From Amphiscolops sp. MND2022 (Eukaryota), in the NCBI GenBank assembly GCA_964187785.1, contig OZ076409.1:72356001-72420000 (forward strand): a stretch of DNA of 64,000 nt. The letters are read 5' to 3'. Of the stretch, positions 1,201 to 50,677 are shown one piece after another. Under the pieces are notes generated by a model. That model was not told the origin of the DNA, ran no database searches, and saw nothing but the letters and a program-made list of their open reading frames with translations. The position numbers and the translations under genes are program-made. The first letter of the stretch is position 1, and each line of letters begins with the position of its first letter.

Positions 1201-1248
1201 GTGATAGCCTTTTCAGTTGGCCTTGTGTCAACTTGGGAAGGCTATCAC
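1201..1248 (+). other. Long bulged hairpin, GATAGCC class (representative; in A and C units)
   Basis: GTGATAGCCTT...AAGGCTATCAC outer stem plus an AGTTG/CAACT inner stem. Confidence 0.8.
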
Positions 1249-1573
1249 ATCAAAAAACCATCAACAAAAATAATTTTTGTTTATTGGATCTTACAGTCGA
1301 TACTTTTTTTCGTGATTCTATACTACCGTTAGTATATTTCATCAGGTCACCTTACGATTGCATTCAGTCTTTGATAAAAACCTATGAACTCAAAGTCACA
1401 TTTATATATTTTTTGGCCAAAAAAACATCAAAAATATCTAAAATATATAAAATAGAGTCTTTAACATTTTTACGTTTCAAGTTTTTGCCGTTATTAAGCC
1501 AATCAACTTCCTACAGCCACGCTCTCTGTCATACTGTACAACGCCACATAGTGTTGCGACGTGCACAGTCTGT

Positions 1574-1593
1574 GGGCATGCCGAGGCATGCCC
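1574..1593. promoter_or_regulatory. Conserved 20-bp palindrome matching the p53-family response element consensus (representative; one per unit end)
   Basis: GGGCATGCCG|AGGCATGCCC matches RRRCWWGYYY x2 at 19 of 20 positions with zero spacer. It is present before all 25 junctions. Function is not demonstrated. Confidence 0.45.
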
Positions 1594-1615
1594 TTCGACG
1601 ACGTATGCCGAATAC

Positions 1616-1645
1616 CGCGGGCCTACGCCCGCGCTCCCCGGCTAG
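1616..1645 (+). other. Helitron-type 3' terminus: GC-rich hairpin plus CTAG (representative)
   Basis: A 7-bp stem lies 8 nt upstream of CTAG. Canonical Helitrons end in a subterminal hairpin followed by CTRR. Confidence 0.7.
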
Positions 1646-3634
1646 GTGGGCGGGGGTAATTCCCCAACAAAAATTACGGCCGGCGGGTTGGGTCCTGCCG
1701 GACGTTCAAATAGCGCGAAGCATCTAGTAGAAAACAAGGAGTCCTGAAACAGCGATTTTAAAATTGAACCGTTAGAATTTGGTTTTAGATTGCAAGCGGC
1801 CCTAAAATCCCCATACGAATGGAAGTTCCTGCTGGCGTTAAGCGATTGAAATAATATATAAAAAGTTATGGCCCATTTTTGGGTCACCGAGAAGGTCAAA
1901 ATGAAGAAAATTTTAACTAAGTTGCTGATAACTCAAAATGTGTTAATTTTTGGACTTTGACTGTGAAACAAGCTTGGAACCTTCATTTCGTGGCTGTGGC
2001 ATTGCACTGAACACAAAAGATGTAAAGTTTTCACATTTTTTGAAAATTCGACATTTTTGAATTTTTTTTCACTACTATCAGTACACTATATGTCAAAAAC
2101 ACCTCTGAAAAATTTTTTTATTTGCTTAAATTTAGAAACCTTGGTATCCATGGTTTCCGTCAGTACCTACTCGCTGCCAAACACTCAACAGTTTGCATCC
2201 AATGTGAAAATAAAATTTTTTTCGAGGTCTTAGGTGTTTCACAAGGATTTCTCAACTTAGTATCAATTTACAAATTGGTCATTTTGAACACATTATTTTC
2301 ATCGAAGCGTGTCATATACCGCCCTAATGCTCACGAACGGGCCTACTGGCAACGTTGGAACCATTTATAGTAATAAAAAGTTTTAAAAAAATTTTTTCAC
2401 CCCGTCTTCAGTCATTTTACACACTTTCGGAACTTAACTTAGAAAAATTTCAACCAAAAACCCATTTTTTGTCAAGTCGAAAATTCAAATTCAGCTTTTT
2501 AAGCAAAATAAATAAATCTGACATAACCACTGGGGCCCATGAAACTCAAAACCACGATTGAGACTGGTATCAATGGCTCCAATAACATATGAGTCGCGAT
2601 AAGACGCTATTTTGAGCAAAACATCTCAATTGAGGTAAAGATCTCGCAAGCCAGCGATCACTGTGAAATGTGATTTCATCAAAAATTTACTCTTTTTTGT
2701 CAATCACTATGTGCACAGAATGCGTAGGGTGCGTTTCAGCACTATAATGAGGTTTTTGAAGGCATCGAGTTGCTCAAGGGGTGGTATGAGACATTTTTGT
2801 CCCATATACTACTGTAGTTTCCAAAATTTTTACCCCAACATCTGAAAATACAAACTTGACAAAATACTTTCAACTACTTTATTCAAAGGTTACAATATAG
2901 ATGAACACTGTGGTTGATAAGAAACTTTCATCTCTTTCGTTTTCGGAAATATTTCCGTTCGCATGTGTTACATTCATAGCAGAAAAAAAAATCGAAACTG
3001 AAAAATACGCTATTTTGCTGATATAGAATCGCAATGATTGTGCCTAAAAACTCTTTAAACACTTCTAACGCAACCTTACGCACCCAAAATGATCGAAAAT
3101 GCTATTCACAATGGTGACATGTGCTCTTTCTACAATCCTGGCTGGACAAGGTTTGCATATTTTTCAAGTACCTGTCAGCTAAATCTTGTGATAGCCTTTT
3201 CAGTTGGCCTTGTGTCAACTTGGGAAGGCTATCACATCAAAAAATCATCAACAAAAATAATTTTTGTTTATTGGATCTTACAGTCGATACTTTTTTTCGT
3301 GATTCTATACTACCGTTAGTATATTTCATCAGGTCACCTTACGATTGCATTCAGTCTTTGATAAAAACCTATGAACTCAAAGTCACATTTATATATTTTT
3401 TTGCCAGAAAATAACATCAAAAATATCTAAAATATATAAAATAGAGTCTTTAACATTTTTACGTTTCAAGTTTTTGCCGTTATTAGGCCAATCAACGTCC
3501 TAGAGCCACATCCTGCCACATACTGTACAACGCCACATAGTGTTGCGACGTGCACAGTCTGTGGGCATGCCGAGGCATGCCCTTCGACGACGTATGCCGA
3601 ATACCGCGGGCCTACGCCCGCGCTCCCCGGCTAG
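1646..3634 (+). mobile_element. Unit 2, family A (1989 bp)
   Basis: Starts GTGGGCGGGGGTAATTCCCC and ends hairpin+CTAG. Appears identical to unit 7 (offset 14781; the ORF-track translations are identical). Confidence 0.8.
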
Positions 3635-4901
3635 GTGGCCGCGTCTTTTAGATGGACTTTTAGCCCTGAGGCGCGGGTAGGGTCCTGCGCCGAAACAGAG
3701 AAATTATACTACTGCACATAGCCCCGGTCCAGACACGATCTCGAAAACTGACCGTTAGAAATTCCTGAAAATTTGCATGTGGCCCCCAATTGGCGAGCAA
3801 TGAAAAAGTGTAGGAGGTCGTTTTTCCCAAATTCCACTGTGAGAGGAGATATATGAAAAAAACGGACCCCAAAATGACGAAATTTTCACTTTTTGACCAA
3901 AAATGTGACATTATCTCCTCAGACAAGGCTCGGAGCAAAATTTGACAGAACCCAAACCTGCAGCAGACTGTTAGAGCAGTGCACACAGTAAGTTTCAAGG
4001 AAATCGGATAATCACATGTGGAGAAATTGACGTTCTTCCGGCGAAATTTTTCGCAAATGCAGTCTATCTCTGCCGTTTTTTGCCCAAAATTTTTCCGAGA
4101 CCCTCTCCTAAAGGCCTCCCCTGGCCCAATTTCTTCCCAAAAAAACCATTTGGCCCTAAATACGAGGTTTCAGCGTTCCAGCATTCCCCAGTGAAAAGTT
4201 ATGGGACTTAGAAATTTTTCAAATATTTTCAAATTTTTTCTAAAAAAGTTCAGGCCGCCCAAAGTGAAGAAACTTCCACACAACTAGTATTGCAAGTGAA
4301 TGCATGTGGAAAGCCCTGCACTTGACCAGAAAAATGCCGTTTAGAACGTCTTTTTATCTTTACTTGATGTTGACTTATGATCTTTTGAGTAACGTATAAC
4401 ACGTGATCACAGTAGTGAAAATCCTAATCAATAATTTTCAAACAATAACGCATGAAAAGAATCTGGAAAGGTTCCGATGGGTCAGTCGGGATGTCTGAAG
4501 CATGTGTACATTCCCGTAGTGTATAGCGGATGTTTTGGGACTTATTAGAAATTGTGATATATTTTATAAAAGTCTTTGTTTCTCATAGAATCTCATGCAG
4601 TTGAGTACATTCCATCTCCCTCTCAGGGGAGATGTGAATGTACGTTTGCCAAATGCCTTGTAAAGTTCACATGTTTGATGGACTTAACTAAAAAAACAAG
4701 TGTGAGTTGCGTTTGCCGAATCGCTACAGCAAAAAATACTAAAACTTTAGTCAGATTGAATGGTTTTTGTCTTTAGTGTTTCTTCTTGTATAGCCGACTT
4801 CCACATCCAATTATCAACGCCCACCGTCCGTAGGCATGCCGAGGCATGCCTTTCGACGACGTATGCCAAATACCCAATGCCACACAGTCTTTCCCCGCTA
4901 G
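3635..4901 (+). mobile_element. Unit 3, short family S1 (1267 bp)
   Basis: Starts GTGGCCGCG. Stem GGCGC/GCGCC flanks GGGTAGGGTCCT. GTACATTC hairpin at 4605-4643, A/T variant palindrome at 4832-4851, ends GCTAG. Confidence 0.75.
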
Positions 4902-6893
4902 GTGCGGGGGGGAAACCCCTTCCTTTATCTTGGAGGATTCGGGTAGGGTCCTGAATCCGAGTTCAGTGCCGCCAGCTCTCAGTAGAAATCTGGGCATTTT
5001 TTTGCGATCTCGTGATCTAACCATAGGATTTTAAAGTTGGAGCGGCCCCCACCAGATTTTCCAAAGTTATTCGCCCCCCACCGGGTTCCAGCGTGATTGA
5101 AATATTTTGTCGGGGTACACGGGCGACCGTTAGGGGTCATTTTAGGGGTAAAATTTATATAATGTCGCATAACTTTTTTCCTGTTGGATTAAAACTTTGG
5201 GACCCTGCTAAAAGTTTCTTGACCGTGTTGCGGGGGCTCCGGAGGTCCAAACCAAATTTTTCTATCTTGAAGCTATCTCCAAGTACCCCCCCGCCCAAAC
5301 CGTTATTTTTCCGGAAACGCAGGTTTTTGACCCGGAAGGAGTCGTCTGAGCGCGGGGTCGTTAGGTGATGTATTGGGGACGGCCTTGAGACGAAGCGGGG
5401 GACATGTAATTTGCCGACCCCAGTTTACCCCCCGGACGGAAAATGACCGTTATATGAGCGGGATAAATGCCCCCCTCCACGTTTTACCGCTATTTCCGAT
5501 GGGAAGGAGTGGGAGTAACGCTTCGGGTGCCATATATCAAAAGTAGGTTTAGACAAGGACCTATCGGAAACATGTGGTTTGGGACCCCCTGACCCAACCC
5601 GTTAGCGGGAAATGGGGCTTCAGCCTCCTTTTTTTACAGTTAAAACCGGAAAATGGGCATTGAGGGGTAAATATCTCGTGAACGCGTGGAGCAATCGTGT
5701 CCATCACTACTACAAGGTTTCATACCCATGATATGGTGCCTTCAGGGGGGCAAACAGATTTCCGCTATCTATCACCGTTACGGACTTGGCCCCCCAGCCT
5801 AACCGCTATGTGACCGGAAATGTCACTTTTTGAGCCCAAAGGGTCAGTCCGAGCGCGGCATGGTTAGCTAACTTATTGTAGTACTCAATGAGACGAGTTG
5901 GGGGATATAGTTTCAGTCACCCCCCGTTACCCCTTGTGACCGGAAATGACCGTTATGTGGGTAAAAATGCGATTTTTGTACTTTTTGAAGGGCATTTAGG
6001 TGCGGAAGGAATGGTAAAAGGTGCTTGGACACTATATGATGTAATGGAGGTCGTGAGGAGAGCATTCGGAAGTAACCGTTACGTTGACCCCAAAGTCCCC
6101 CTGGTACCGTTAACAACCGGAAATGGCCAAATTTTGTGTTTATAGGGTACAAATGTTTGGTATTTTATGGATAAAAGTACCTGGAAGGTGTTTTAAAGGC
6201 CTCCAGAAGTGAACATAGTCATGAAACTTTGTGGGGGGTAACGGTATATAGCACCGGAAGTCCAAACCGTTAGTTACAGAATAGGTTTTTTGGTTTCAAA
6301 ATGTCTTTAGGCGTAGTTTTGTGGGTTGAATCGTCATAATATCAACTAATACGGACTTTTTTCGGAAATAAAATTTTTTCACATTAGTTTCAGGGACCTC
6401 CAATGTTTCAGTCAACATAACCGTTACATTTTGATAGCCTTTCAAGTTGGCCTGGTGTCAACTTGGAAGGGCTATCCTTCTAAAATCGTTAATCAAGAGT
6501 GTTTTTGGGTAGGTATATGTTGCATTAGTACCAATTAGAGCTTCATCAACAGTTTGCCAACGGCAAAAACGATGTCGTGATAATTCCGTTATAAGAATAT
6601 TAATTAACAAATTGTTTCCAAAGTTGATTTTTTCCATTCGAAATGTGTCCCAATGCCACCAAATTGAATAAAATAATAAATGGTATTGACTAAAACTAAA
6701 TAACATTGAAAAAGAAGCTCAACATTTTTAATAGGTCTCATAATGGAAGCTGAAACCTCACGTTTTAACTTAATTAACGTCAACGCCACATACTTTACAT
6801 CAACGTCCGCCGTCTGTGGGCATGCCGAGGCATGCCCTTCGACGACGTATACCAATTACATATATATCTACACCCACCCGCGGTAGCAGCTAG
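4902..6893 (+). mobile_element. Unit 4, GC-richer family C (1992 bp)
   Basis: Starts GTGCGGGGGGGAAACCCC. Body is homologous to units 17, 23 and 25 but not recognisably to family A. GATAGCC hairpin at 6433-6476, palindrome at 6818-6837. Confidence 0.75.
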
Positions 6894-9130
6894 GTGGGCG
6901 GGGGTAATTCCCCAACAAAAAAATCGGCCGGCGGGTCGGGTCCTGCCGGCCGTCCAAAATCAAAATCCTCCTAGTAGAAAACGGCATGTCAAACGAGCTA
7001 TTTTTTTATTTAACCATACGAATTTCACCATTTTTTGCATGCGGCCCTGAAATGGCCATACGAGACGAAGTTCCTGCTGACGTTTTGCGATGTAAATGTT
7101 TTATAAAAAGTTATGGCCTATTTGTCATTCACCTAGAAGGGTAAAATGAGGAAAATTTTAGCAAAGTCGCTGATAACTCAAAATGTGTTAATTTTTGGAC
7201 TTTGACTGTGAAACAAGCTTGGAACCTTCATTTCGTGGCTGGGGCATTGGACTGAACACAAAAGATGTAAAGTTTTTACGTTTTTTGAAAATTCGACATT
7301 TTTGAAATTTTTTTCACTACTATCAGTACCCCATATGTCAAAAACACCTCAGAAAAAAATTTTTATTTGCTTTAAATTGGAAACCTTGGTATCCATGGTT
7401 TCTGTCGGGACCTACTCGCAGCCAAACACTTAACAGTTTGCATCCAATGTGAAAAGAAAATTTTTTTCGGGGTCATAAGCGTTTCACAAGGATTTCTCAA
7501 CTTAGTATCTATTTACAAATTGGTCATTTTGAACACATTATTTTCATCGAAGCGTGTCAGATACCACCCTAATGCTCACGAATGGGCCTACTGGCAACGT
7601 TGGAACCATTTTTAGTAATAGAAAGTATTAAAAAAATATTTTCACCCGGTCTTCAGTCATTTTTCAGACATTCGGTACTTAACTTAGAAAAATTTCGCAT
7701 CAAAAACCCATATTTGGTAGGGTCGAAATTTGAAATTCAGTTTTTTATGCAAAATTATTAACTCTGACGTAACCAGTGGAGCCCATGATACTCAAAATCA
7801 CGATTGGGACTGGTATCAGTGGCTCCAATAACATATGAGCCGCGATAAGACGTTATTCAGAGCAAACGCTCTAAATCGAAGTAAACATCTCTGAAGCCTG
7901 GGATCACAGTGAAATGTGATATCACCAAAAGTTTACTCTTTTTTGTCAATCACTATGTACACAGAGTGCGTAGGGTGAGTTTCAGGACTATAATGAGGTT
8001 TTTGAAGTAATCGCGCTGCTCAAGGGGTGGTATGAGACTATTTTTTCCCATATACTACTACATTTCCATAAATTTGCAGTCCATTGTCTTGGAAAGATAA
8101 CTTCACAAAAACAATTTTTGTACTCTATTCAGTTATTAGAATAAAGTTGAACACTGTGGTTGATCAGAAATGCTCAATTCTTTTGGTTTTTAAAAAAATT
8201 CCTTCGCATTCGTTACATTTGTGGAAGGAAGGTTATCAGTAGCTCCAAAAAAAAACGAAATTTAGCACGAACAGACATGCAACGATGCAAAGCAAAAACG
8301 TTTTTACAACTTCCGACGTCATTATTTTACCCAAGAAGATTGAAAATATCATTCGCAATGCTGTCATTCGCTATATATACGATCGCGGTCAATTTACAAA
8401 CATTTAGATTTCATTGTTCTGCTTGAAAACCAATTTTTGTCAGGTCGAAATTTTAAATTTTGCCTGGGGAGCAATACCCTTCACGCTGAAGTAAACAGTG
8501 GGGCCCAAGTTACTCAAAAACAAGAAAGAGACTGCTACAATATGTCCTAATAACATATGGACCACGATAGTACACTTTTCACACAAAAAACTCTCATCCG
8601 AAGTAAATATGTTGAAAGCTTTTAATCACCGTGAGAAGTGATTTCATCAAAAAGTAACTCTTTTTTGTCAATCACTATTTACACAGAATTTGTAAAGTTA
8701 GTTTGAGTCATGAAATGAGGCTTTACCGTAATATGGGTTGCTCAAGGTGTTATATAAGACAAAAACTTCCTCTTTTCTACTAGCTTCTTCAAATATTTCA
8801 ACCCTTTGTCACAATAAGTTAATATTCAAAATATCTTTGAAATGTATCTTTATGTTGGGGTGAAGTCTAAGAACAATAACTATGATCGAAGAATGCTAGT
8901 ACTGGTGTTTGAACCATGTCCGGATGAACAAATCACAAAATCATCAAAAAATTGTTCCCTTTTTTGGTTATTTTGGCAGTACTAAAAATGTTAGCTGATA
9001 AATAATTTTTTCGATGGCACCATTGGATTCCTCTCAAAAAGTTGGTTATATGACCTGTGTAATAACCCCGTATCTTTTCAATTTAAATATATTTAAAAAG
9101 CCAACTATTTTGACCAAAATCCTAAAAATC

Positions 9131-10405
9131 ATACCATTTCCTAAAAATTTTCAAATGCACCCCATTTGACGTATAAGATAAGCACAGAAAACTATCATTT
9201 ACCGATCAACTCTACTCCCATTGTAGATTATTAGAATTTTGTTTAGAATGAATTTTGATGGATATTAAAAAAATTTTGAACCCTCCAAAAATGGGCCAAA
9301 ATTACACGAAAAAATTGACCTTAAAATACCAAAATGTCAAAAAATCATCAAAACCACGGCTTCTTGGGGTTCTATCAACTCCGCGTGGTCCACAGAGTAT
9401 GCTAAAACAGGATTTACCCGTTTTTGAGCAATATGTGAAAAAGCCGACATTTTTGGGAAAGAAAAACATACCATTTCCTAAAAAAATTCAAATGCACGTA
9501 ATTTGCCGTATTAGAATAGCACAGAAAACTATCACATACCAATCAACTCTACTTTCATTGCAGATGAACAGAATTTTGTTTAGAATAAATTTTACCGGAT
9601 AATAAAAAAATTTGAATCCTTCAAAAATGGGCCAAAATTACACGAAAAAATGGACCTTAAAAATTTAAAATGTCAAAAAATCGTCAAAACAACAGCTTCT
9701 TGGGGTTCTATCAACTCCACGAGGTCCACAGAGTATGCTAAAACAGGTTTTACCCGTTTTTGAGCAATATGTGAAAAAGCCGACATTTTTGGGAGAGAAA
9801 AACATACCATTTCCTAAAAAAATTCAAATGCACGCCATTTGCCGTATGAAAATAGCACAGAAAACTATCACATACCAATCAACTCTACTTTCATTGCAGA
9901 TGAACAGAATTTTGTTTAGAATAAATTTTACCGGATAATAAAAAAATTAGATTCCTTCTAAAATGGGCCAAAATTACACGAAAAAAAGGACCTTAAAATT
10001 TTAAAATGTCAAAAAATCATCAAAACCACGGCTTCTTGGGGTTCTATCAACTCCACGTGGTCCACAGAGTATGCTTTATAGAGAGAATAAAACCCGGTTT
10101 TACCCATCTTTGAGCAAAATGTGAAAATACCGACATTTTTGGAAAAGAAAAAAATACCATTTTCTAATAAATTTCAAATGCACGCCATTTGCTGTATGAG
10201 AATAACACAGAAAGCTGTCACATACCGATCAACTCTACTTCCATTGTAGATTATCAGAAGTTTGTTTTGAATAAATTTTGATGGTTAATAAAAATAATTG
10301 AATCCATCAAAAATGGGCCAAAATTACACGAAAAAATTGACCTTAAAATATCAAAATGTCAAAAAATCATCAAAACCACAGTTTCTTGGCGTTCTATCAA
10401 CTCCA
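9131..10405 (+). repeat. Internal ~336-bp tandem repeat, ~3.8 copies
   Basis: ATACCATTT anchor at 9131, 9468, 9804 and 10154. The third copy carries a ~14-bp insertion near 10076 that unit 15 lacks. End coordinate is approximate. Confidence 0.9.
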
Positions 10406-10688
10406 TATGATACCAAACCAGGTACTGCCAATCGTTTGAGTTATAATAAAAAAACGTCTTTTTTGGCAAGAATTCCATACCATAAATAATGTTCCATATA
10501 AGAAGCGAATCATTTCAGATATATACCCTGTTCATTTTTTTAATATTACCGATTATTAATTTAATAGATGTTTTGAATGTGAGCTTCCTAAAAGGTTCAG
10601 GTGTGATGTTACGTAAAGAGAACCTTAGTTTCATCGAAATCTCAATTGAATATGTCCAATCCTAACCATCAGATAACAAGAAACACTT

Positions 10689-10731
10689 AAGTACATTCCA
10701 TCTCCCCATCGGGGGAGATGAGAATGTACTT
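10689..10731 (+). other. Long bulged hairpin, GTACATTC class (representative; in L, S1 and S2 units)
   Basis: AAGTACATTC-CATCTCCCC-[ATCG]-GGGGAGATG-(A)-GAATGTACTT. Confidence 0.8.
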
Positions 10732-38377: not shown

Positions 38378-41167
38378 GTGGCGGGGGGCTGTCCCCAATA
38401 GAATATAGTGAGGTAGGGTAGGGTTCCCTACCGAACATTCAGTACTGAAAGACTCTTGTAGTATGAAAATTTTTCGATGTTTTGAGACCGATTTCGGATT
38501 CCACCCGTCAGAAGTTTATGATTTTTTGGCCCCCACCCAGATTTTGGGCACTGATCGCCCCCCACCAGGTTCCATACCCGTGGTTTCGTTGTGACGGGTA
38601 CACGAGCGACCGTTAGGGGTCAATCAGGGGGTAAAATTTATAAAAGTGTGAATAACTTTTCCCCCCGTCGTTTTAGCAGGTCCGGTCACTAGTAAAGGTT
38701 TGTTGGGCATCATGCAGTGGGTACGGGGGGCCAAACAAAAATTTTCTATCTTGCACCGTTACGGACTTGGCCCCCCGCCCAAACCGCTATTTTACCGGAA
38801 ATTGCACTTTTTGACCGGGAAGGAGTCGTCTGAGCGCGGAGTCATTTGGTAATGTTTTGTAGAGCATCTGGAGACGTGGTGGGGGACATGTAGTTTGCCG
38901 ACCCCAGTTTACCCCTCGGACGGGAAATGACCGTTATGTGAGTTTCAAAAATGCCCCCCTCCAATTTTCCCCGCAATTTCCGGTGTGAAGGAGTCGGAAT
39001 AGCGTGTCGAGTGCTATATATCAAAAGTAGCTTTAAACAAGGACCTATCAGAAACATGTGGTTTGGGACCCTTTGAACGGACCCGTTAGCCGGAAATAGG
39101 GTGACCGCCTCCTTTTTTGGTGGTAAAACCGTAAAACGGGCATTAAAGTGTAATTATCTCGTGAACGCGTGGAGCAATCGTGTCCATCACTCCTACAAGG
39201 TTTCATACCCATGACATGGTGCCTTCAGGGGGGCAAACAGATCAGCGCTATCTATCACCGTTACGGACTTTGCCCCCCAGCCTAACCGCTATATTACCGG
39301 AAATTGCCCTTTTTGACCGGGAAGGAGTCGTCTGAGAGTGGAGTCGTTAAGTAATGTTTTGTAGAGCATCTAGAGACGTGTTGGGGGACATGTAGTTTGC
39401 CGACCCCGGTTTACCCCTCGGACGGGAAATTACCGTTATGTGAGTTTTAAAATTGACCCCCTTCAACTTTCCCCGTTATTTCCGATGTGAAGGAGTGAGG
39501 GTAGCGCGTCGGGTGTCATATATCAAAAGTAGGTTAAGACAAGGACCAACCGGGAACATGTTGTTTGGGACCCTCTGGCCCAACCCGTTAGCCGTTATAA
39601 GGGTGATCGCCTCCTTTTTTTACTGCTAAAACCGGAAAACGGGCATTGAGGGGTAAATATCTCGTGAACGCGTGGAGCAATCGTGTCCATCACTACTACA
39701 AGGTTTCATACCCATGATACGGTGCCTTCAGGGGGGAAAACAGATTACCGCTATATATCACCGTTACGGACTTGGCCCCCCAGCCTAACCGCTATGTGAC
39801 CGGAAATGTCATTTTTTGAGCCAAAAGGGTTGGTCCCAGCGTGGGAACGTCAGGTAACTTTATGTAGAACTCAATGAGACGAGTTGGGGGATATAGTTTT
39901 AGTCACCCCCCGTTGACCCGTTGGACCGGAAACGACCGTTATGTAGTGAAAAATGTTATTTTTATACTTTTTGAAGGCCATTTAGGGCAGGAAGTATCGG
40001 TAATATGTCTTTGGACAGTATACAATGAAAGTTTTGGTGTGAAACGAGCAATCTGAAATAACCGTTATTATGATTCGGAAGTCACACTAACAGCGAAAAT
40101 GACCGTTATGTAGTGAAAATTTTTTTCACAATTTTTTTTATTTTCGATAGGTCCTTCAAGCCAGGAAGTAGCTGTATTAGGTCTTTGGTCACTTTATGAT
40201 GATTGTGGTGTTGTGAGATGACCGTACGAACTTGACCGTTATAATGCCCCTGAAGTTGCGGCGGCACGAGAAATTTCAGAAAGTTTGTCTTTTCTGTGTT
40301 TTGTTGGAATAAACATGTAATTTCATCAAACCAAAGTGCATTCAGGGTGTCAGAAAGCTTCAAGAAAAGAATTTGACAGGAAACATGAGGTGAGAAATAG
40401 GAAAATGCCACGGAAATCCAACCCGTTGGGAAGTAAAGATAATAAATTGGTTTGGAAGTGCCAATCGACGTGTAATTGCGGATCATAGCTACGATATTGT
40501 CTCTTTTGTTTCTTTTTGAAGACTTTGAACATTTTCACTTTATCAGCTTGAAGTTTCGACTCCATTAACTCAATAACCGTTACAATATGATAGCCCTCAA
40601 GTTGACCTTGTGTCAACTTGAAAGGGCTATCCTTTCACAACTGCGCAGCGACAGTGTGATTGAGTGTTTTTGTTATTATCCATAGCCAATTTGAACTTCA
40701 ACAAAAGTTTAACCATAGTTAAAAAATTTCATATGATTCTTTTAAAAGGATAAGTAAGAAACAAATGTTTGACAAAAAACTTTCAACCTTTAATTTGTGG
40801 ACTGAATATCAGGAAAACCATGTCTCCTAACGTTGTTGGATGAAATTCAACATGATTCTTTTAATAGGATAACAAAATTTGACAACATATTTTTTTATAT
40901 TCTTTCGTTGGTGCTCTACATTTTAGGAAAACGAATTTTCCAACAAATATTGTTGGCTGATGCCTGTTCATAGTGGCTTGAAAATTTCACCAACTGTAAT
41001 GCTTTTTATCAAAGGTGAAACCGCTCCTTACCGTCGCATAATGTAATTCAAGCCGACGCCCACATGCCAACATCAACGCCCACCGTCCGTAGGCATGCCG
41101 AGGCATGCCTTTCGACGACGTATGCCAAATCACGCCCCTGCGAGGTCACTAAAGCGGTAGCGGCTAG
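38378..41167 (+). mobile_element. Unit 17, long variant of family C (2790 bp)
   Basis: C-type body with one extra ~502-bp repeat and a unique 3' region. Hairpin at 40589-40631, A/T variant palindrome at 41091-41110. Confidence 0.75.
38745..39960 (+). repeat. Internal ~502-bp tandem repeat, ~2.4 copies
   Basis: ACCGTTACGGACTT anchor at 38755, 39257 and 39760. Ends are approximate. Confidence 0.88.
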
Positions 41168-44100
41168 GTGGGCGGGGGTAATTCCCCAACAAAAAAATCG
41201 GCCGGCGGGTCGGGTCCTGCCGGCCGTCCAAAATCAAAATTATACTAGTAGAAAACGGCCGGTCAAACGAGCTATTTTTTTATTTAACCGTTAGAATTTG
41301 GGTTTAGATTGCATGCGGCCATGAAATGGCCATACGAATCGAAGTTCCTGCTGACGTTTTGCGATTGAAACACTTTATAAAAAGTTATGGCCAATTTGTC
41401 AGTCACCTAGAAGGGCAAAATGAGGAAAATTTCAACAAAGTCGCTGATAACTCAAAATGTGTTAATTTTTGGACTTTGACTGTGAAACAAGCTTGGAACC
41501 TTCATTTCGTGGCTGTGGCATTGCACTAAACACAAAAGATGTAAAGTTTTTACATTTTTTGAAAATTCGAAATATTTGAATTTTTTTTCACTACTATCAG
41601 TACCCCATATGTCAAAAACACCTCAGAAAAAAATTTTTATTTGCTTTAAATTGAATACCTTGGTATCCATGGTTTCTGTCGGAACCTACTCGCAGCCAAA
41701 CACCCAACAGTTTGCATCCAATGTGAAAATAATTTTTTTTTCGAGGTTATAGGTGTATCACAAGGATTTCACAACTTAGTATTAATTTACAAAATGGTCA
41801 TTTTCAACATCATATTTTCATCGAGGCATGTCGGATATAGTCTTAATGCTCACGACCGGTCCTACTGGCAACGTAATACCCATTTATAGAAATATAAAGT
41901 TTAAAAAAAATATTTTCACCCGATCTTCAGTCATTTTTCAGTCATTCGGAACTTAACTTAGAAAAATTTCGACCAAAATACCCATTTTTGTCAGGTCGAA
42001 AATTCAAATTCAGCTTTTTAAGCTAAATTATTAAATCTGACGTAACCAGTGGGGCCAATGAAACTCAAAACTGCAATAGACACTGGTATCAATGGCTCCA
42101 ATAACATATGAGTCGCGATAAGGCGTTATTTTGAGCATTACGTCTCAATTGAGGTAAACATCTCGCAAGCCAGAGATCACTGTGAAAAGTGATTTCATCA
42201 AAAATTTACTCATTTTCGTCAATCACCATGTGCACAGAATGCGTAGGGTGAGTTTCAGCACTATAATGCGGTTTTTGAAGGAATCGGTCTGCTCAAGGGG
42301 TGGTATGAGACATTTTTTTTCATGTAGTACTATATTTCTCAAAACTTTTAGCCCATTATCTCGAAAAGCTCACTTCGCAAATTACTTTCAGTTACTCTAT
42401 TCGAAGCTTAGAATATATATGAACACTGTGGTTGATCAGAAACTCTTGACTATTTTGTTTTTGGAAAAAAACTGCCTTGCATGTGTTACATTAGTGGCAG
42501 GAAAAATACCAGTAGCTCCAAAAATCACAATTTTGGACGGACAGACCTGCAATGATGCAAAGCAAAAACGTTTCAACAACTTCTGGCGCCACTTTTTTTA
42601 CCCAAGAGGTTCGAAATTACTATTAACAATGCTGACATTCGCTATAAATAAGATCGAGGTCAATTTACTAACACTTAGGTTATACATTTATATCTGAGAA
42701 ACCATTCTTTGTCAGGTCGCAATTTTAAATTTAGTTTGGGAAACAATACTTTTCACTCTGAAGCAAACCGTTGGGCCCAAATTACTCAAAAACTACAAAA
42801 AGACTGTCACCATATGCCCTAATAGCATATGAGATTCGACCGTTTGTTTTTAACACAAAAACTCTCATCCGAAGTAAACATGTTGAAAGCCTTGAATCAC
42901 CGTGAGAAATGATTTCATCAAAAAATATTCCTTTTTCGTCAATCTTCATCTACACAGAACACGTTGTGTCATTTTCAGCCGTGAAATGAGCTTCTACCGT
43001 AATATGGGTTGCTCAAGGTGTTGTATAAGACAAAAACTTCCTCTTTTCTACTATCTTCTTCAAATATTTCAACCCTTTGTCACAAGAAGTTAATATTCAA
43101 AATCTCTTTGAAATGTTTCTTTAGGTTGGGGTGAAGTGTTAGAACAATAATTATGATCGAAGAATGATAGTATTGGTGTTTGGACCATGTCCGGATGAAC
43201 AAATTGCAAAATCATGAAAAATTTCTTACCATTTTTGGTCATTTTGTCAGTACTAAAAATGTTAGCTGAAAAAGAATTTTTTTGATGGCACCATTGGATT
43301 CCTCTCAAAAAGTTAGCTATATGAACTGTGTAATAACCCCGTATCTTTTCAATTTAAATAATTTTAAAAAGCAAACTTTTTTGACTAAAATCCTAAAAAT
43401 CATACCATTTCCTAAAAAATTTCAAATGCCCCCCATTTGACGTATAAGAATAGCACAGAAAACTATCACATACCGATCGACTCTACTTCCATTGTAGATT
43501 ACCAGAATTTTGTTTAGAACAATTTTTGACGGATGCAAAAAAAATTTAAACCCTCCAAAAAAGGGCCAAAATTACACGAAAAAATTGACCTTAAAATTTT
43601 AAAATGTCGAAAAATCATCAAAACCACAGCTTCTTGGGGTTCTATCAACTCCACGTGGTCCACAGAGTATGTTAAAACAAGTTTTACCCGTATTTGAGCA
43701 ATATGTGAAAAAGCCGACTTTTTTGGGAATGAAAAACATACCATTTCCTAAAAAATTTCAAACGCACCCCATTTGACGTATAAGAATAGCACAGAAAACT
43801 ATCACATACCGATCGACTCTACTTCCATTGTAGGTTACCAGAATCTTGTTTAGAACAATTGTTGACGGATGCAAAAAAAAATTAAACCCTCCAAAAATGG
43901 GCCAAAATTACACGAAAAAATTGACCTTAAATTTTTAAAATGTCAAAAAATCATCAAAACCACAGCTTCTTGGGGTTCTATCAACTCCACGTGGTCCACA
44001 GAGTATGCTAAAACAGGTTTTACCTGTTTCTGAGCTATATGTGAAAAAACCGACATTTTGGGGAAGAAAAACATACCATTTCTTAAAAAATTTCAAATGC

Positions 44101-45928
44101 ACGCCATTTGCCGTATGAGAATAGCACAGAAAACTATCACATACCGATCAACTCTACTTCTATTGTAGATTATCAGATTTTTGTTTAGAACAAATTTTTA
44201 TGGATATAAAAAATTTTTAAACCCTCCAAAAATGAGCCAAAATAACACGAAAAAATGGACCCTAAATTTTTAAAATGTCAAAAAATTATCCAAACCACAG
44301 CTTCTTGGGGTTCTATCAGCTCCACGTGGTCCACAGAGTATGCTAAAACAGGTTTTGCCCGTTTTTGAGCAGTATATGAAAAAGCCGACATTTTTGGGGA
44401 AGAAAAACATACCATTTCCTAAATAATTTCAAATGCTGGCAATTTGCCGTATGAGAGTAGCACAGAAAACTATCACACACCGATCAACTCTACTTCTTTT
44501 GTAGATTATCAGAATTATGTTTAGAGTAAAGTTTTATGGATATGAAAAATTTTTATACCCTCCAAAAATGGGCCAAAATGACACAAAAAAATTGACCTCA
44601 AATTTTTAAAATGTCAAAAAATTATCCAAACCACAGCGTCTTGGCGTTCTATCAACTCCAAATGACCTTCAGAGTATACCAAACCAGGTATTGCCAATCT
44701 TTTGAGCAATATTTAAAAACACCGACTATTTGGCAAGAACACGATAATATGTTCCATATAAGAAGTGAATCATTCCACATATATACCCGGTCTAATATTT
44801 CCAAATTAGCGATAACATTTATACATGATGGTTTTTGAAAGTGAGCTTCATAAGAGGTTGAGATGTAATAATACGTAAATGGACCCTAAGTTTCATTGAA
44901 ATCTCAATGGAATACGTCCAATCAACTTCAATCCTAACTATTATATAACAAAAAACACTTGAGTACATTCCATCTCCCCATCGGGGGAGATGAGAATGTA
45001 CTTTTCAAAAGCCAAAAACTTCGAATTTTAAATCTTTTGTAACATTGTATGTAACTGTTGAAACGATGAACGAATAAAAATGCTTCTAGTACCTTCATCA
45101 ATTTTTGCTTCAGCTCCTATTTCTGCAGAACAAAACCAAAAGACACACTTACAGCAGTTAAGTTCGATTGTATAACTCAGTGAATAAAGGTATGACTGAG
45201 GAAGTTCACAAGTTGTTTCAAAAGTTTCCGGCCTTCCAAAATCATGAAACGTCCACACAACCAAGATAGCAAGTGAAAGAATGCTGAATGCACCTTATTA
45301 GATGAGATAAATAATGTGTGGAACTTGCCATTATCTCAAGATGACGTTGATTTATGATCTTTTAAGGATAGTTCGATATGTGACCACAATAGTGGAAAAC
45401 TTATTACTATTTGAAGAACACCGTGGAAAGCGTTCAGAAAGGACAGTATATTTGTTTCGAGCATGCATGCGTGTGTTCCTTTGGTGACGTTAGCTTAGTG
45501 TACATGACGGAGGTATTCGAGAGATTATGATAGAGTTTACTCACAAGTCTTTGTTTTTTTAAACTTTCTATGCCGTTGAGTACATTCGTAAGGTACATCC
45601 ATCCCCTTCTCTGGGAATGTACGTTTGCCAAATGACTGTCATCCAAAATTCGTAATCCGGACGAGTTTAACTACATAAACATGTGATGAGCGTTTTCAAT
45701 TCACAACCGAATAACATTTTTTTTCTCGAAAATGATGATGGTTTTGATTTTGATGTCTTCTACTTTTATCATCATGCAAACGACCTTACCATGTCTCTCT
45801 TCTGTCGTCATTTGTACAACGCCACATAGCGTTCCGACGCCCACCGTCTGTGGGCATGCCGAGGCATGCCCTTCGACGACGTATGCCAAATGAGCCATAC
45901 CCGCACTCTGGAGTGCGGTAGCGGCTAG
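41168..45928 (+). mobile_element. Unit 18, family L (4761 bp)
   Basis: Near-identical to unit 6 beyond ~1.1 kb. GTACATTC hairpin at 44962-45002. Confidence 0.78.
43402..44740 (+). repeat. Internal ~336-bp tandem repeat
   Basis: Same repeat as 13900-15240. Ends are approximate. Confidence 0.88.
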
Positions 45929-48900
45929 GTGGGCGGGGGTAATTCCCCAACTAAAAATTCGGCCGGCGGGTCGGGTCCTGCCGGCCGTCCAAAATCAAAA
46001 TCCTACTAGTAGAAAACGGCATGTCAAACGAGCTATTTTTTTATTTAACCGTTAGAATTTGGGTTTAGATTGCATGCGGCCATGAAATGGCCATACGAAT
46101 TGAAGTTCCTGCTGACGTTTTGCGATTGAAACACTTTATAAAAAGTTATGGCCAATTTGTCAGTCACCTAGAAGGGCAAAATGAGGAAAATTTTAACAAA
46201 GTCGCTGATATCTCAAAATGTGTTAATTTTTGGACTTTGACTGTGAAACAAGCTTGGAACCTTCATTTCGTGGCTGTGGCATTGCACTGAACACAAAAGC
46301 TGTAAAGTTTTCACATTTTTTGAAAATTCGACATTTTTGAAATTTCTTTCACTACCATCAGTACCCCATATGTCAAAAACACCTCAGAAAAAAATTTTTA
46401 TTTGCTTTAAATTGGAAACCTTGGTATCCATGGTTTCTGTCGGAACCTACTCGCAGCCAAACACCCAACAGTTTGCATCCAATGTGAAATAAAAAATTTT
46501 TTCGAGGTCATAAGCGTTTCACAAGGTTTTCATGATTTAGTATTAAATTACATAGTGGTCATTTTAAACATAAAATTTTGGTCCAGGCATGTCGGATATA
46601 GTCTGAATGCTCACGAACGGTCCTACTGGCAACGTATGAACCATTTATAGTAATAAAAAGTATTAAAAAAATTTTTTCACCCGGTCTTCAGTCATTTTTC
46701 AGACATTCGGAACTTAACTTAGAAAATTTTCGAACCAAATACCCATTTTTTGTCAGGTCGAAAATTGAAATTCAGCTAATAAAGCAAAATTTTTTACTCT
46801 GACGTAACCAGTGGGGTCCATGATACTCAAAAATACGATTGGGACTGGTACCAATGGCTCCTATATCATATGAGCCGCGATAAGATGTTATTTCGAGCAA
46901 TACGTCTCAATTGAGGTAAACATCTCGCAAGCCTGGGATCACAGTGAATTGTAATTTTATCAAAATTTTACTCATTTTTGTCAATCACTATGTGCACAGA
47001 GTGCGTAGGGGGAGTTGTAGCACTATAATGAGGTTTTTGAAGGCATCGGGTTGCTCAAGGGGTGGTATGAGACATTTTTTTCCTATATACTACTGTATTT
47101 TCCAAAACTTTTAGCCCATTATCTGCAAAAACTAACTTGACAAAATACTTTGAGTTACTCTACTCAAAGCTTAGAACATAGATGAACACTGTGGTTGATC
47201 AGAAACTATTTACTATTTTGTTTTTAGAAAAAACTGCCTTGCATGTGTTACACTAGTGGCAGGAAAAATACCAGTAGCTCCAAAAATCACAAATTTGGAC
47301 GGACAGACTTGCAATGATGCAAAGCAAAAACGTTTCAACAACTTCTGACGCCACTTCTTTTACCCAAGAGGTTCGAAAACGCCATTAACAAGGCTGACAT
47401 TCGCAATAAATAAGATCGAGGTCCATTTACTAACACTTAGGTTTCAAATTTGTTTCTGAGAAACCCATTTTTGTCAGGTCGCAATTTCAAATTTAATTTG
47501 GGAAGCAAAATTTTTCACTCTGAAGCAAACCGCTGGGCCCAAATTACTCAAAAACAACAAAAAGACTATCACCATATGCTCTAATAACATATGAGATGCG
47601 ACAGTATGCTTTTAACACAAAAACTCTCATCCGAAGTAAACATGTTGAAAGCCTTGAATCACCGTGAGAAGTGATTTCATCAAAAAATATTTCTTTTTCG
47701 TCAATCACTATATACACAAAACCCGTTGTGTTAGTTTCAGCCGTGAAATGAGGTTCTACCGTAATATGGGTTGCTCAAGGTGTTGTATAAGAGAAAATCG
47801 TCCTCTTTTCTACTAACTTCTTCAAATATTTCGACCCTTTGTCACACGAAGTTAAAATTCAAAATCTCTTTGAATTGTTTCTTTAGGTTGGGATGAAGTG
47901 GTAGAACAATAACTTTGATCCAAGAATGCTAGTATTGGTGTTTGGACCATGTTTGGATGAACAAATCGCAAAATCATGAAAAATTTGTTTCTTTTTTTGG
48001 TTATTTTGGCAGTACTAAAAATGTTAGCTGACAAATAATTTTTTCGATAGCACCATTGGATTCCGCTCAAAAAGTTGGTTATATGACATGTGTAATAACG
48101 CCGTATCTTTTCAATTTAAATATATTTAAAAAGCCAACTTTTTTGACCAAAATCCTAAAAATCATACCATTTCCTAAAAAATTTCAAATGCACCCCATTT
48201 GACGTATAACAATAGCACAGAAAACTATCATATACCGATCAACTCTACTCTCATTGTGGATTATTAGCATTTTGTTTTGAACGAATTTTGATGGATATTA
48301 AAAAATTTTGAACCCTCCAAATATGGGCCAAAATTACACGAAAAAATTGACCTTAAAATTTTAAAATGTCAAAAAATCATCAAAACTACAGCTTCTTGGG
48401 GTTCTATCAACTCCACGTGGTCCACAGAGTACGCTAAAACAGGTTTTACCCGTTTTTGAGCAATATGTGAAAAAGCCGACATTTTTGGGAAAGAAAAACA
48501 TCCCATTTCCTAAAAAAATTCAATTGCACGCCATTTGCCGTATGAGAATAGCACGGAAAACTATCACATACCGATCAACTCTACTTTTATTGTAGATGAT
48601 TAAAAATTAGTTTAAAACAAATTTTGACGGATATTAAAAAATTTTAAACCCTTAAAAAATGGGCCAAAATTACACGAAAAAATTGACCTTAAAATTTTAA
48701 AATGTCACAAAATCATCAAAACCACAGCTTCTTGGGGTTCTATCAACTCCACGTGGTCCACAGAGTACGCTAAAACAGGTTTTACCCGTTTTTGAGCAAT
48801 ATGTGAAAAAGCCGACATTTTTGGGGAAGAAAAAATAGGCATTTCCTAAAAAAATCAAATGCACGCCATTTGCCGTATAAGAATAGCACAGAAAACTATC

Positions 48901-50677
48901 ATATACCGATCAACTCTACTCCCATTGTAGATTATTAGAATTTTATTTTGAATGATTTTTGATGGTTATTAAAAAATTTTGAGCCCCCCAAAAGCGGGCC
49001 AAAATTACACGAAAAAATTGACCTTAAAATTTTAAAATGTCAAATAATCATCGAAACCACAGCTTCTTGGGGTTCTATCCACTCCACATGGCCCACAGAG
49101 TATGCCAAACCAGGTTTTGCGCGTTTTTGAGCAATATTTGAGAAAGCCGAGTTTTTTGGGGAAGAAAAACATAACATTTCCTAATAAAATTCAAATGCAC
49201 GCCATTTGGCGTATGACAATAGCACAGAAAACTATCACATACTAATCAACTCTACTCTCTTTGTAGATCACCAGAGTTTTGCTTAGAATAAATTTTGATG
49301 AATATTTGTAAATTTTAAACCCTCCTAATATGGGCCAAAATCACACGGAAAAATTGACCGTAAGGTATTAAAATGTCAGAAATTCATCAAAACCACAGCT
49401 TCTTGGGGTTCTATCATTTCTATATGACTTTCAGAGTATACCAAACAAGGTATTAACATTGGGCGATAATTAAAAACACCAATTTTATTTTAGAAGAAAA
49501 CCATAATAAGTTCAATATAAGAAGTGAATCATTCCATATATATACCCTGTCTTATATTTTAAATTAGCGATAATATATATACTTGATGTTTTTTGAAAGT
49601 GAGCTTCATAAGTGGTTGAGATGTGATAATACGTAAATGGATTCCAAGTTTCATCGAAATGTCAATGGAATACGTCCAATCAACTTCAATCTTAACAATT
49701 AGATAACAAAAAACCTAAGTACATTCCATCTCCCCATCGGGGAGATGAGAATGTACTTTTCAAAAACCAAAAACTTAGATGTTTTTTTTTGTAACACTTA
49801 CTGTAACTGCTGAAATGATGAAAGAATAATTATGCTTCTAATAACTCCATGATTTTTTGCTTCAGCATTTTTTTTGCAGAACAAAACCATCAGACATATT
49901 TTTCGCAGTTAAGTTCGATCGTATTACCCAGTGAACAAAGGTATGGAAGGATGTTTACAAGTTGTTTCAAAACTTTCCCGCCTTCCAAAATAATGAAACG
50001 TCTACACAACCAAGATAGCAAATGAATGAATGCGGAATGCATCTTATTAGATAAGATAAATAACGTGTAGAACTTACCTTTATCTGAAGTTGACGTTGAT
50101 TTATGATCTTTAGAGGATAGTTTGATTTTTGACCATAATAGTGGGAAACTAATTATTATATGAATGATGGCGTGGAAAGCGTTCAGAAATTGTAGTATTT
50201 TGGATTCGAGCATGTATGCGTGGGTTCCTTTGGTGGCGTTAGCTTAGTGTACATGATGGAAGTTTTCGATCTGTTATGATTAATTTTACTCACGAGTCTT
50301 TGTTTTTCCTATTTTTTTGCCATTAAGTACATTCATTCTATCCCCTTTTCTGAGAATGTACGTTTGTCAAATGACTGTCATCCAAATTTTGCATTCCCGA
50401 AGAGTTTAAATACATAACACGTGTTTAGCGTTTCCAAATCACAACCGAGTAACATTCTATTTTTTTTTCTCAAAATTGATAATGGTTTTGATTTTGGTGT
50501 CTTCTACTTTCATCATCCATCATAACAACCACCTTACCATGTCTCTCGCTTGTCTTCATTTTACAACGCCACATAGTGTAGCGACGCCCACAGTCTGTGG
50601 GCATGCCGAGGCATGCCCTTCGACGACGTATGCCAAATTTAGCGTTAGCCCGCGGTCACTACCGCGGTAGCAGCTAG
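45929..50677 (+). mobile_element. Unit 19, family L, third subfamily (4749 bp)
   Basis: L layout with hairpin at 49717-49758. Terminal hairpin is shared with unit 10. Confidence 0.78.
48164..49490 (+). repeat. Internal ~336-bp tandem repeat
   Basis: Four diverged copies of the L-family repeat. Ends are approximate. Confidence 0.85.

Follow-up and report, generated by a model that had tools for sequence, protein, structure and literature searches.

Head-to-tail array of non-coding units in Amphiscolops carries one long hairpin per unit at a position that scales with unit length

The window analyzed here, a 64-kb stretch of the Amphiscolops sp. MND2022 genome (1..64000), is a head-to-tail array with 25 junctions, every one of them on the + strand, and no unique flank is present within these 64 kb. 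The 25 copies of GCTAGGTG, taken as cut points, delimit 24 complete units, which belong to seven families and four size classes (1.3–4.8 kb). The units are non-coding, and neither a Rep nor a helicase was found among 49 reading frames. Each unit carries a long internal hairpin of one of two types, referred to here as G (GATAGCC) and T (GTACATTC).

The G-type units, which are 1.97–1.99 or 2.79 kb long, begin with a partial class A unit (U0, 1..1645, hairpin 1200-1249). The complete class A units are U1 (1989 bp, 1646..3634, hairpin 3187-3236), U6 (1989 bp, 16427..18415, 17968-18017), U7 (1987 bp, 18416..20402, 19955-20004), U9 (1990 bp, 21682..23671, 23221-23270), the four units U10–U13 (23672..31619, starting at 23672, 25659, 27644 and 29631, with hairpins at 25211-25260, 27197-27246, 29183-29232 and 31170-31219), the three units U19–U21 (50678..56627, starting at 50678, 52659 and 54643, with hairpins at 52213-52262, 54197-54246 and 56184-56233), and U23 (1987 bp, 58599..60585, 60138-60187). 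Class C comprises U3 (1992 bp, 4902..6893, 6430-6479), U22 (1971 bp, 56628..58598, 58135-58184) and U24 (1993 bp, 60586..62578, 62115-62164). The single class B unit, U15 (1994 bp, 36384..38377, 37914-37965), is A-like to the end of the hairpin and then has a foreign tail, and the single class D unit, U16 (2790 bp, 38378..41167, 40586-40634), is C-like with internal duplications. The T-type units are 1.27–1.28 or 4.75–4.77 kb long: S1 (U2, 1267 bp, 3635..4901, hairpin 4603-4645), S2 (U8, 1279 bp, 20403..21681, 21374-21416) and five L units, each with 3.8–4.0 copies of a 336-bp repeat at 83–98% identity. These are U4 (4770 bp, 6894..11663, hairpin 10689-10731, repeats 9125-10405), U5 (4763 bp, 11664..16426, 15459-15501, 13894-15229), U14 (4764 bp, 31620..36383, 35409-35451, 33852-35118), U17 (4761 bp, 41168..45928, 44961-45003, 43396-44739) and U18 (4749 bp, 45929..50677, 49717-49758, 48158-49416). 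The window stops short of the expected hairpin position in the last, partial A/L-type unit (U25, 62579..64000). All units and hairpins lie on the + strand, and hairpin type follows size class in 24/24 units, as a preliminary description of this DNA had stated.

The first junction serves as an example of the unit ends. Its tail module contains two spaced CRACG..CAC repeats (1538..1573, +) and a 20-bp dyad (1574..1593) whose 18-bp core is invariant in 25/25 junctions and in L001, a public metagenome contig that shares the T hairpin and the module and has a body identity of about 70%; the outer pair of the dyad covaries, being G-C in 21 junctions and A-T in 4 and in L001. A Helitron RTS-like 3' terminal hairpin follows (1616..1633, +; 7-bp stem, 4-nt loop), which stops 12 nt short of the CTAG end, then the junction core GCTAG|GTG (1641..1648, +), where units change neighbors, and the head hairpin (1677..1705, +), with a conserved loop TNGGGT. 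CTAG stands at 25/25 unit 3' ends, with CGAG in its place in L001, and GTG follows it at 25/25 junctions. The tail hairpin (5–7-bp stem, 4-nt loop, at least four different stem sequences) lies 10–12 nt before the CTAG end in 20 of the 25 tails, is shifted in one and is missing in four. No terminal inverted repeat of at least 8 nt was found in 11 units, the longest exact head/tail inverted match being 6–7 nt.

Taken by themselves, these ends could belong to circular retro- or DNA elements that a tyrosine recombinase has inserted at the 8-bp core, with DIRS, Ngaro and Crypton elements as a comparison. The dyad would then be a p53-family promoter, and the internal hairpin a second-strand start comparable to the central polypurine tract, an internal second-strand start whose place is likewise proportional. 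The core is indeed asymmetric and shared, with exchanged flanks, mosaicism is pervasive, and the dyad, 50–70 nt before the core, fits RRRCWWGYYY x2 with one mismatch in 25/25 cases (0.09 expected). However, no conserved inverted arms were found around the core, the units contain no minus-strand self-matches and no internal region complementary to their ends, poly(A) was not found and 5' truncation is seen in 0/24 units. TGG is missing from the heads of C and L001, and a hairpin plus CTAG at 10–12 nt would be left unexplained. We consider this reading improbable.

The preliminary description had placed exactly one intact long hairpin in each complete unit, and the sequences it gave are found at all nine of its quoted coordinates. 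Indeed, we find one in 24/24 complete units, 17 of G type and 7 of T type. With DNA parameters, this hairpin outranks every other unbranched stem-loop of the body in 24/24 units (−13.2 to −19.5 kcal/mol, at least 4.4 kcal/mol ahead of the runner-up), and only 2 of 360 dinucleotide shuffles of ten unit bodies reach the observed strength. Covariance models recover 18 G-type hairpins (the 17 complete units and the partial first unit) at 64–79 bits, the next unrelated match scoring 12.6 bits, and the seven T-type hairpins plus one in L001 at 67–72 bits, scores that are partly circular because the models were built from the very copies scored. By these models, both types are never intact together in any of the 24 complete units, and 0/24 units lack a hairpin. 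Flush target-site duplications flank 0/8 hairpins tested, with two offset 4-mers only, which argues against MITEs or independent mini-elements. The claim that both types have the same bulged architecture holds loosely: each arm has two conserved boxes, with a bulge on the 3' arm, but the G type has 18–22 bp with a wobble-rich middle and the T type 17–19 bp with invariant arms.

The bodies around the hairpins had been described as otherwise unrelated. This is true of A and C, S1 and S2, S2 and L, and L001, where the hairpin is an island in unlike sequence, but not of L and A, which have 1.47 kb in common at 84%, nor of B and A, D and C, or the 3' part of L and S1. Bodies that cannot be aligned agree in length within 1% (A and C, 1971–1994; S1, S2 and L001, 1267, 1279 and about 1257). 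Identity between U1 and U6 extends for 2000 bp, beginning 2 nt ahead of one core and stopping 1 nt past the next, and for the four unit pairs of at least 95% identity the neighbor classes differ on 8/8 sides. Units of one class show no clumping along the array (9 same-class adjacencies vs 6.6 expected, P 0.13). The units are thus stacked singly, in near-random order, joined at GCTAG|GTG.

These borders bear on the suggestion that the hairpin is a recombination signal, and specifically on its being an attC-like folded site at cassette borders. The two boxes per arm and the 3'-arm bulge resemble such a site, and A–B homology stops at the 3' end of the hairpin. The near-identical pairs, however, are identical across the hairpin and switch neighbors at the core, and four-gamete incompatibility across the hairpin is 0.12, compared with 0.21–0.44 at 12 boundaries (columns 350–1450) and 0.09–0.16 at the other six. 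Units exchange at the GCTAGGTG core, the hairpin is no crossover hot spot, and an integron attC, with cassette-border crossover at the hairpin, is largely refuted here.

The position of the hairpin scales with the length of the unit, an observation that is new here and absent from the preliminary description. The loop lies at 0.776–0.802 of the unit in the 1.27-, 1.99-, 2.79- and 4.76-kb classes. Measured from the 3' junction, its position is 49 + 0.189 × length, with R2 values of 0.997 (seven class means) and 0.998 (four size classes) and fractions of 0.778–0.801, for data that comprise four size classes from one array and points that are not fully independent since D derives from C. The P value is 8e-5 against uniform placement and, by hand calculation, about 1e-3 under a null that allows placement in the final 35% of the unit only. 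Out of sample, L001 has its loop at 298 nt, where about 286 is predicted for the implied 1257-bp unit.

Surplus copies decay. All five L units contain, in addition to the intact hairpin at 0.80, a second T hairpin at 0.93 that is orthologous to that of S1 and has decayed in three different ways. These copies (+ strand), all five recognizable by sequence, are found at 11315..11357 in U4, with flanks orthologous to the S1 hairpin, and at 36035..36077 in U14, both missed by the covariance model, and at 16076..16122 in U5 (21.5 bits), 45578..45624 in U17 (21.5 bits) and 50325..50363 in U18 (23.3 bits). Types have also been swapped: L carries a T hairpin in an A-like 5' body, and S2 retains a 13-nt remnant of a G-type 5' arm (21300..21312, +) 75 nt before its T hairpin, a length reached in 0/1000 shuffles. 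Together with the absence of hairpin-less units and of flush duplications (8/8), the surplus decay and the swaps in L and S2 support the earlier proposal of an essential, interchangeable cis module.

Neither the scaling nor the loss of second copies would be accounted for if the hairpins were short small-RNA precursors, shRNA-like for G and miR-451-like for T, one of the functions offered previously. The G type does have a 22-nt 5' arm whose first base, an invariant T, is left unpaired in C and D; positions 1–8 of this arm do not vary, against three changes on the facing strand, and G.U wobbles fall on plus. Canonical pre-miRNAs have a basal stem and a loop of at least 8 nt; here a conserved basal stem is seen in 0/11 folds and the loops are 3–7 nt. 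The G 5' arm has no complementary target in the window, there is no Rfam match, and the first base of the T type varies. The idea is therefore weak, and we judge it decidedly improbable.

Conservation of the arms raises a different concern. Pairs that never vary number 16/19 in the T type and 11/22 in the G type, unlike the head hairpin with its strongly compensatory stem and many double changes, and arm covariation does not exceed that of shuffles (47/500 and 351/500), which leaves room for a palindrome bound by protein as a double strand. Such a site might act in copy control, partition or chromatin anchoring, its position being passively inherited within a complex satellite that unequal crossing-over maintains. 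Consistent with this, singleton substitutions show little strand asymmetry (C>T 29, G>A 23), linkage among A units falls off with linear distance, and the internal repeat periods (167, 336, 502 and 1004) are multiples of about 167.5 bp. Yet in L the copy retained is the new one at 0.80, the ancestral copy at 0.93 was lost, neighboring copies are not more alike than distant ones (90.7 vs 88.8%), and identical units lie apart with core-to-core borders. Wobbles are confined to one strand: over 12 distinct hairpin variants, 14 G.T pairs fall on plus and 0 on minus, and the hairpin alone is more stable on plus in 6/10 copies, equal in 1 and slightly worse in 3. The G.T pairs favor plus, the strand on which a single-strand origin upstream of a putative nick site at the junction would fold. 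On balance, a passive binding site appears rather improbable.

The tight lengths suggest a further possibility, in which the units belong to a helper virus or plasmid as its non-coding circular satellites, selected by size during packaging. Integration would take place at their origin, and the hairpin would be a packaging or primer site; a fifth of the circle may then be double-stranded in the particle. Unalignable bodies of equal length, a stuffer-like 336-bp repeat of steady number, mosaic bodies and tails swapped between families all fit, and begomovirus deltasatellites are likewise non-coding and size-limited, with a secondary stem-loop, as here, besides their origin (PMC8615175). The units differ from these in being larger, of several sizes and in a long integrated stack, and the junction has no nonanucleotide stem-loop of the CRESS-virus kind: TAATATTAC occurs at chance level (2 matches vs 1.66 expected), both times in L bodies. 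Moreover, no match was found in the viral contigs, phages or plasmids searched, the 3' end is Helitron-like, and four sizes call for several helpers or capsids. We regard this as unlikely, though deserving of consideration.

Compared with non-autonomous canonical Helitrons (HLE1; Helraiser/Helibat1) as characterized in the portions of PMC11417382, PMC4778049 and PMC5876387 used here, the units are similarly non-coding, about 2 kb long, with a 3' hairpin 10–12 nt before CTAG, precise head-to-tail joints, shuffled ends, captured repeats and plus as the folding strand. Helitron1 is described as having a hairpin 10–12 nt from a CTRR end (PMC5148889), the arrangement found here, and in Helraiser the palindrome, of 19 bp, is reported to lie 11 nt upstream (PMC4778049). 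In contrast, the units sit at their own junction rather than at dispersed A|T sites, where canonical Helitrons insert without target duplication by means of a RepHel transposase, and form tight size classes, and those HLE1 accounts mention no obligatory internal hairpin at a scaled position. Their heads begin GTG, not the TC of the HLE1 definition as given there (PMC11417382), which precludes membership. HLE2 elements (Helitron2/Helentron, DINE/HINE, FoHeli; PMC5148889, PMC11417382) share internal tandem repeats and a hairpin at each end, here the compensatory head hairpin and the tail hairpin, and have tandem insertions and self-insertion on record, but the units lack the asymmetric terminal inverted repeat (11–18 nt in HELIANO's search; best 7 nt here, in 4/11 units), end in CTAG and are joined at CTAG|GTG instead of inserted at T|T. 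Proto-Helentrons (5' TT, 3' CTAG) agree at the 3' end and not at the 5' GTG. Given GTG heads in 25/25 and no terminal inverted repeat in 11/11, no described Helitron class fits. Paramecium telomere-targeting Helitrons (PMC13085455) are also target-specific, with absolute orientation bias, abundant satellites and duplications and ORF-less derivatives, but telomeric repeats flank them, whereas the units here abut without spacer. Replitrons (PMC10288648) are HUH-type, with a Y1 Rep that lacks a helicase, a palindrome at the right end and short terminal direct repeats; here a copy of the core lies on either side of each unit and is shared by neighbors, as any tandem stack would show, and the fuzzy ends and target duplications of Replitron-1 are absent. 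Finally, the single-strand origins of rolling-circle plasmids and ICEBs1 are orientation-specific stem-loops that serve second-strand synthesis and mostly lie upstream of the nick; they are bacterial, about 200 bp long and contain several stem-loops, and the part of PMC4595007 relied on describes no proportional placement, although its section 20 argues that their place relative to the nick is a timing adaptation.

We favor, with a probability of roughly 0.4, the reading that the units are non-autonomous Helitron-like rolling-circle elements whose hairpin primes the minus strand, with a timing rule governing its place. A transposase supplied by a helper located elsewhere would nick CTAG|GTG and peel the plus strand head to tail. 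At about 80% peeled, the hairpin would fold and start a minus strand running back to the head; it would be read sequence-specifically, since its arms are conserved and do not covary. The last 20% would be peeled meanwhile, and the strand cut at the hairpin-CTAG and closed into a circle. Both processes could end together if minus-strand synthesis were about four times faster than unwinding, and such a fixed 4:1 split would make the best hairpin place scale with length and a copy at 0.93 surplus. New copies would be joined at existing CTAG|GTG junctions, which would produce the same-strand, near-randomly ordered stack. Two hairpin types would mean two priming factors or helper lineages.

The Helitron-like part is favored by the tail hairpin before CTAG, unit-wise stacking and the Helraiser and Helitron1 precedents, and weakened by the GTG heads, the four tails without a hairpin, CGAG in L001 and the lack of Rep or helicase frames. 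The priming part is favored by the length scaling, the L001 fit, the decay at 0.93, plus-only wobbles and the timing precedent, and weakened by the modest plus-strand stability and the few size classes; the nearly strand-symmetric substitutions give no sign of long single-strand exposure and also count against it. An internal origin is no general Helitron need, as Helraiser yields double-stranded circles from donors described, in the account used here, as a marker between two ends only (PMC5876387). Of the four functions offered in the preliminary description, a second-strand origin is the best-fitting candidate, and a packaging signal is a possible alternative.

The same account states that Helraiser requires double-stranded donors and proposes lagging-strand synthesis on the peeled strand, leaving its priming open (PMC5876387); one hairpin per unit at a length-scaled place makes this Helitron second-strand step directly testable. 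A cis element at a constant fraction over a 3.7-fold size range is surprising whatever the mechanism, and the same goes for non-coding elements that target their own junction and fall into tight size classes. It is possible, if doubtful, that these are eukaryotic rolling-circle replicons of discrete sizes that home to their own end-to-end junction, with a sequence-specific second-strand origin at a fixed 4:1 fraction and two interchangeable types competing, one per unit. If the 4:1 origin reading is true, the relative speeds of two replication machines are written in the DNA; if the packaging reading is, an unknown helper has left its satellites on record in the array. Arrays like this one would pass as plain satellite DNA or escape TC/CTRR-based tools.

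Repeat sequence fills the window end to end, at a G+C content of 33–48%, and both the 18-bp dyad, a conserved palindrome in the tail module, and the 8-bp core GCTAGGTG, at which neighboring units meet as GCTAG|GTG, are present in 25 copies, all on the plus strand. An in vitro concatemer is out, as all 25 joints lie on the same strand and are base-precise. Cutting after CTAG sets the unit borders and gives 24 complete units, which fall into classes A (n = 12, 1981–1990 bp), B (n = 1, 1994 bp), C (n = 3, 1971–1993 bp), D (n = 1, 2790 bp), S1 (n = 1, 1267 bp), S2 (n = 1, 1279 bp), and L (n = 5, 4749–4770 bp). CpG observed/expected is 0.86–1.03 across the window, with no sign of methylation-driven CpG loss, and most bodies have an AA/TT period near 10–10.5 bp, a weak and uncontrolled signal.

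The preliminary description held that every complete unit carries exactly one intact long hairpin, of a GATAGCC (G) type in some classes and a second (T) type in S1, S2, and L. The observation is confirmed: in 24/24 units no unbranched stem-loop of the body is stronger than the named hairpin, which leads the next by at least 4.4 kcal/mol, and 2 of 360 shuffles, made from 10 unit bodies, equal its strength. Covariance models, both trained on the window's own copies, find 18 intact G-type and 7 intact T-type hairpins, never two per unit. Little beyond the hairpin and the end modules aligns between A and C, S1 and S2, or S2 and L. A second T hairpin is present in 5/5 L units, in sequence that corresponds on both flanks to the surroundings of the intact S1 hairpin; its decay has followed three different routes. 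The first 1.47 kb of class L is also A-like, ending ∼70 nt short of the place of the G hairpin of A, and in S2 a 13-nt piece of the G-type 5′ arm survives immediately before the T hairpin (0/1000 shuffles; matches to the other type are ≤9 nt in the remaining 23 units). The decayed copies, the A-like start, and the S2 remnant argue that surplus copies are lost and types swapped, in agreement with what had been proposed earlier. At 4506 in S1, a further candidate for a decayed hairpin gains no support from the covariance model. As for hairpins dispersing as independent mini-elements with target-site duplications, none of the eight tested has a flush duplication. We regard the hairpin as an essential single-copy cis signal, with a probability of roughly 0.85.

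The hairpin arms are kept by sequence, not by covariation, with 11/22 (G type) and 16/19 (T type) pairs invariant and covariation scores not above shuffles; in the head hairpin, by contrast, 6 of 12 predicted pairs show double changes. A passive double-strand binding site within a satellite appears improbable. Over 12 distinct hairpin variants, 14 G·T pairs occur on plus and 0 on minus, although the plus strand folds more stably in only 6/10 copies. A skew switch at the hairpin is out, being inconsistent in 10 units. Rfam gives no match at gathering score over the window, and chance-level matches only on 1–12000, and a self-cleaving ribozyme is rejected on this ground; the search for tRNA genes gave none. 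A small-RNA precursor is quite unlikely.

The position of the hairpin scales with unit length, a new result beyond the preliminary description. The distance from loop to 3′ junction is 278–287 nt in the 1.27-kb units, 420–440 nt in the 1.99-kb units, 559 nt in D, and 941–954 nt in L. Regression of this distance (d) on unit length (L) gives d = 49 + 0.189 L, with R2 of 0.997 for the 7 class means and 0.998 for the 4 size classes, all four from one array and with D descending from C. The hairpin fractions by size class are 0.778, 0.782, 0.800, and 0.801. The placement has P = 8e-5 against a uniform null and, by hand calculation, ∼1e-3 against a stricter null limited to the last 35% of the unit. 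In L units, the lost T copy lies at 0.93 and the retained copy at 0.80. A metagenome relative, OBOP01004400.1 (L001), aligns with S1 at 70% over 339 nt, beyond which only the T hairpin and module align, and contains a joint between an S-type tail and an S-type head; its distance is 298 nt against ∼286 nt predicted, for a unit length deduced from colinearity with S1. A literature search, mostly outside subscription journals and Repbase, found no description of a length-scaled internal hairpin, of this unit family, or of different Helitrons stacked together and carrying an internal hairpin; the sole match to the motif strings was an unrelated primer.

Lengths agree within ∼1% among unalignable bodies (A/B/C, 1.97–1.99 kb; S1/S2 and L001, 1.26–1.28 kb), which suggests selection on unit size. 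Such tight lengths, together with 336-bp repeats fixed near 4 copies, favor packaged satellites of a helper, for which the satellites of PMC8615175 offer a comparison. Pfam searches of 49 stop-to-stop frames (≥62 aa) from 7 representative units reveal no transposase, Rep, helicase, recombinase, RT, or other mobile-element protein, blastn finds no match in plasmids and phages, and exact patterns of the units have none in the viral contigs (0 in 5/5 scans) or prokaryote genomes (0 in 2/2) scanned. We judge packaging unlikely. The 336-bp repeats of L units lie at 9125–10405, 13894–15229, 33852–35118, 43396–44739, and 48158–49416. Internal periods of 336, ∼167, 502, and 1004 bp (L units; D, 38378–41167) are multiples of ∼167.5 bp, a nucleosome-like length; unit lengths as nucleosome multiples are rejected, as hand calculation gives no common period. 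A D-only frame at 40163–40363 (minus) narrowly passes the Pfam threshold for Flu_PB2_6th (E 7e-6), with E 0.41 against solved PB2 and no homologue among longer proteins; it is either chance or a decayed captured fragment.

Units move singly. U1 (1646–3634) and U6 (16427–18415), four units apart, are 100% identical from core to core, indicating very recent copying. Twelve pairs reach ≥93% identity; the 4 at ≥95% have different neighbor classes at 8/8 sides, and the other 8 are A–A pairs, often with A neighbors. Adjacent A units (90.7%, n = 7) are hardly closer than distant ones (88.8%, n = 59), and class order is not clumped. Contigs matching 1646–21640 at 80–100% identity, 63 in sequencing run X1 and 29 in run X2, contain parts of all classes present there, with patchy coverage, placing relatives in two other studies. 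The alignment of a C-type X1 contig begins precisely at 4897, where a core has its first base, and is a weak, independent pointer to the same joint. Class A bodies are mosaics in which incompatibility climbs from 0.15 to 0.71 as sites lie farther apart; across the hairpin it is low (0.12), which rules the hairpin out as the point of exchange. We consider an attC-like site highly improbable. The same tail allele stands behind unrelated bodies (11587–11663 and 60509–60585; 21609–21681 and 38305–38377), which argues that 3′ ends are swapped between families within the dyad block.

The tail dyad, extended to 20 bp, occurs at 1574–1593 and 24 further junctions, and at 812–831 of L001, with an outer pair covarying between G–C and A–T. 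It fits, with one mismatch at 25/25 junctions (0.09 expected), the p53-family consensus for a zero-spacer response element. This match favors recombinase-integrated circles with a p53-like promoter, a reading we hold to be doubtful. An LTR/TRIM tandem array is out (no TG..CA ends; C and L001 heads without TGG), as are kinetoplast-like minicircles, since the units have no strand G+T bias and their motif orientation does not fit.

No terminal inverted repeat was found in the units tested. In 20/25 tails a perfect 5–7-bp stem with a 4-nt loop, differing in stem sequence among tails, lies 10 or 12 nt ahead of the end of CTAG; the hairpin is shifted in 1 of the other 5 and missing in 4. PMC5148889 and PMC4778049 describe this hairpin and CTAG layout for the 3′ end of Helitron1. 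The 5′ end is GTG, whereas HLE1 starts with TC (PMC11417382). L001 reads CGAG in place of CTAG. The units appear to work like a non-autonomous Helitron, yet judged by their termini they fall outside HLE1, HLE2, and proto-Helentron; we lean toward their being rolling-circle elements at all. Target-specific Helitrons with fixed orientation occur in Paramecium (PMC13085455), and Helitron tandem and self-insertions have been reported (PMC5148889); Replitrons (PMC10288648), whose membership hinges on a Rep, are a further comparison.

We tentatively propose, at somewhat less than even odds, that the hairpin is a minus-strand origin under a timing rule. Counted against this are the lack of a helper, the GTG start, the CGAG of L001, and the strand-symmetric substitutions of the window units, as well as Helraiser, which works without an internal site of this kind. 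For Helraiser, PMC5876387 requires double-stranded donors and proposes lagging synthesis on the peeled strand, leaving its priming open; for bacterial rolling-circle elements, PMC4595007 argues that the site of the single-strand origin with respect to the nick serves to prevent premature double-strand formation. In the proposed minus-strand scheme, the hairpin would prime a minus strand that has 0.8 L to cover on its way back to the head, in the time that a helicase would take to unwind the last 0.2 L of the unit; a constant ratio of copying to unwinding speed would then yield the constant hairpin fraction.
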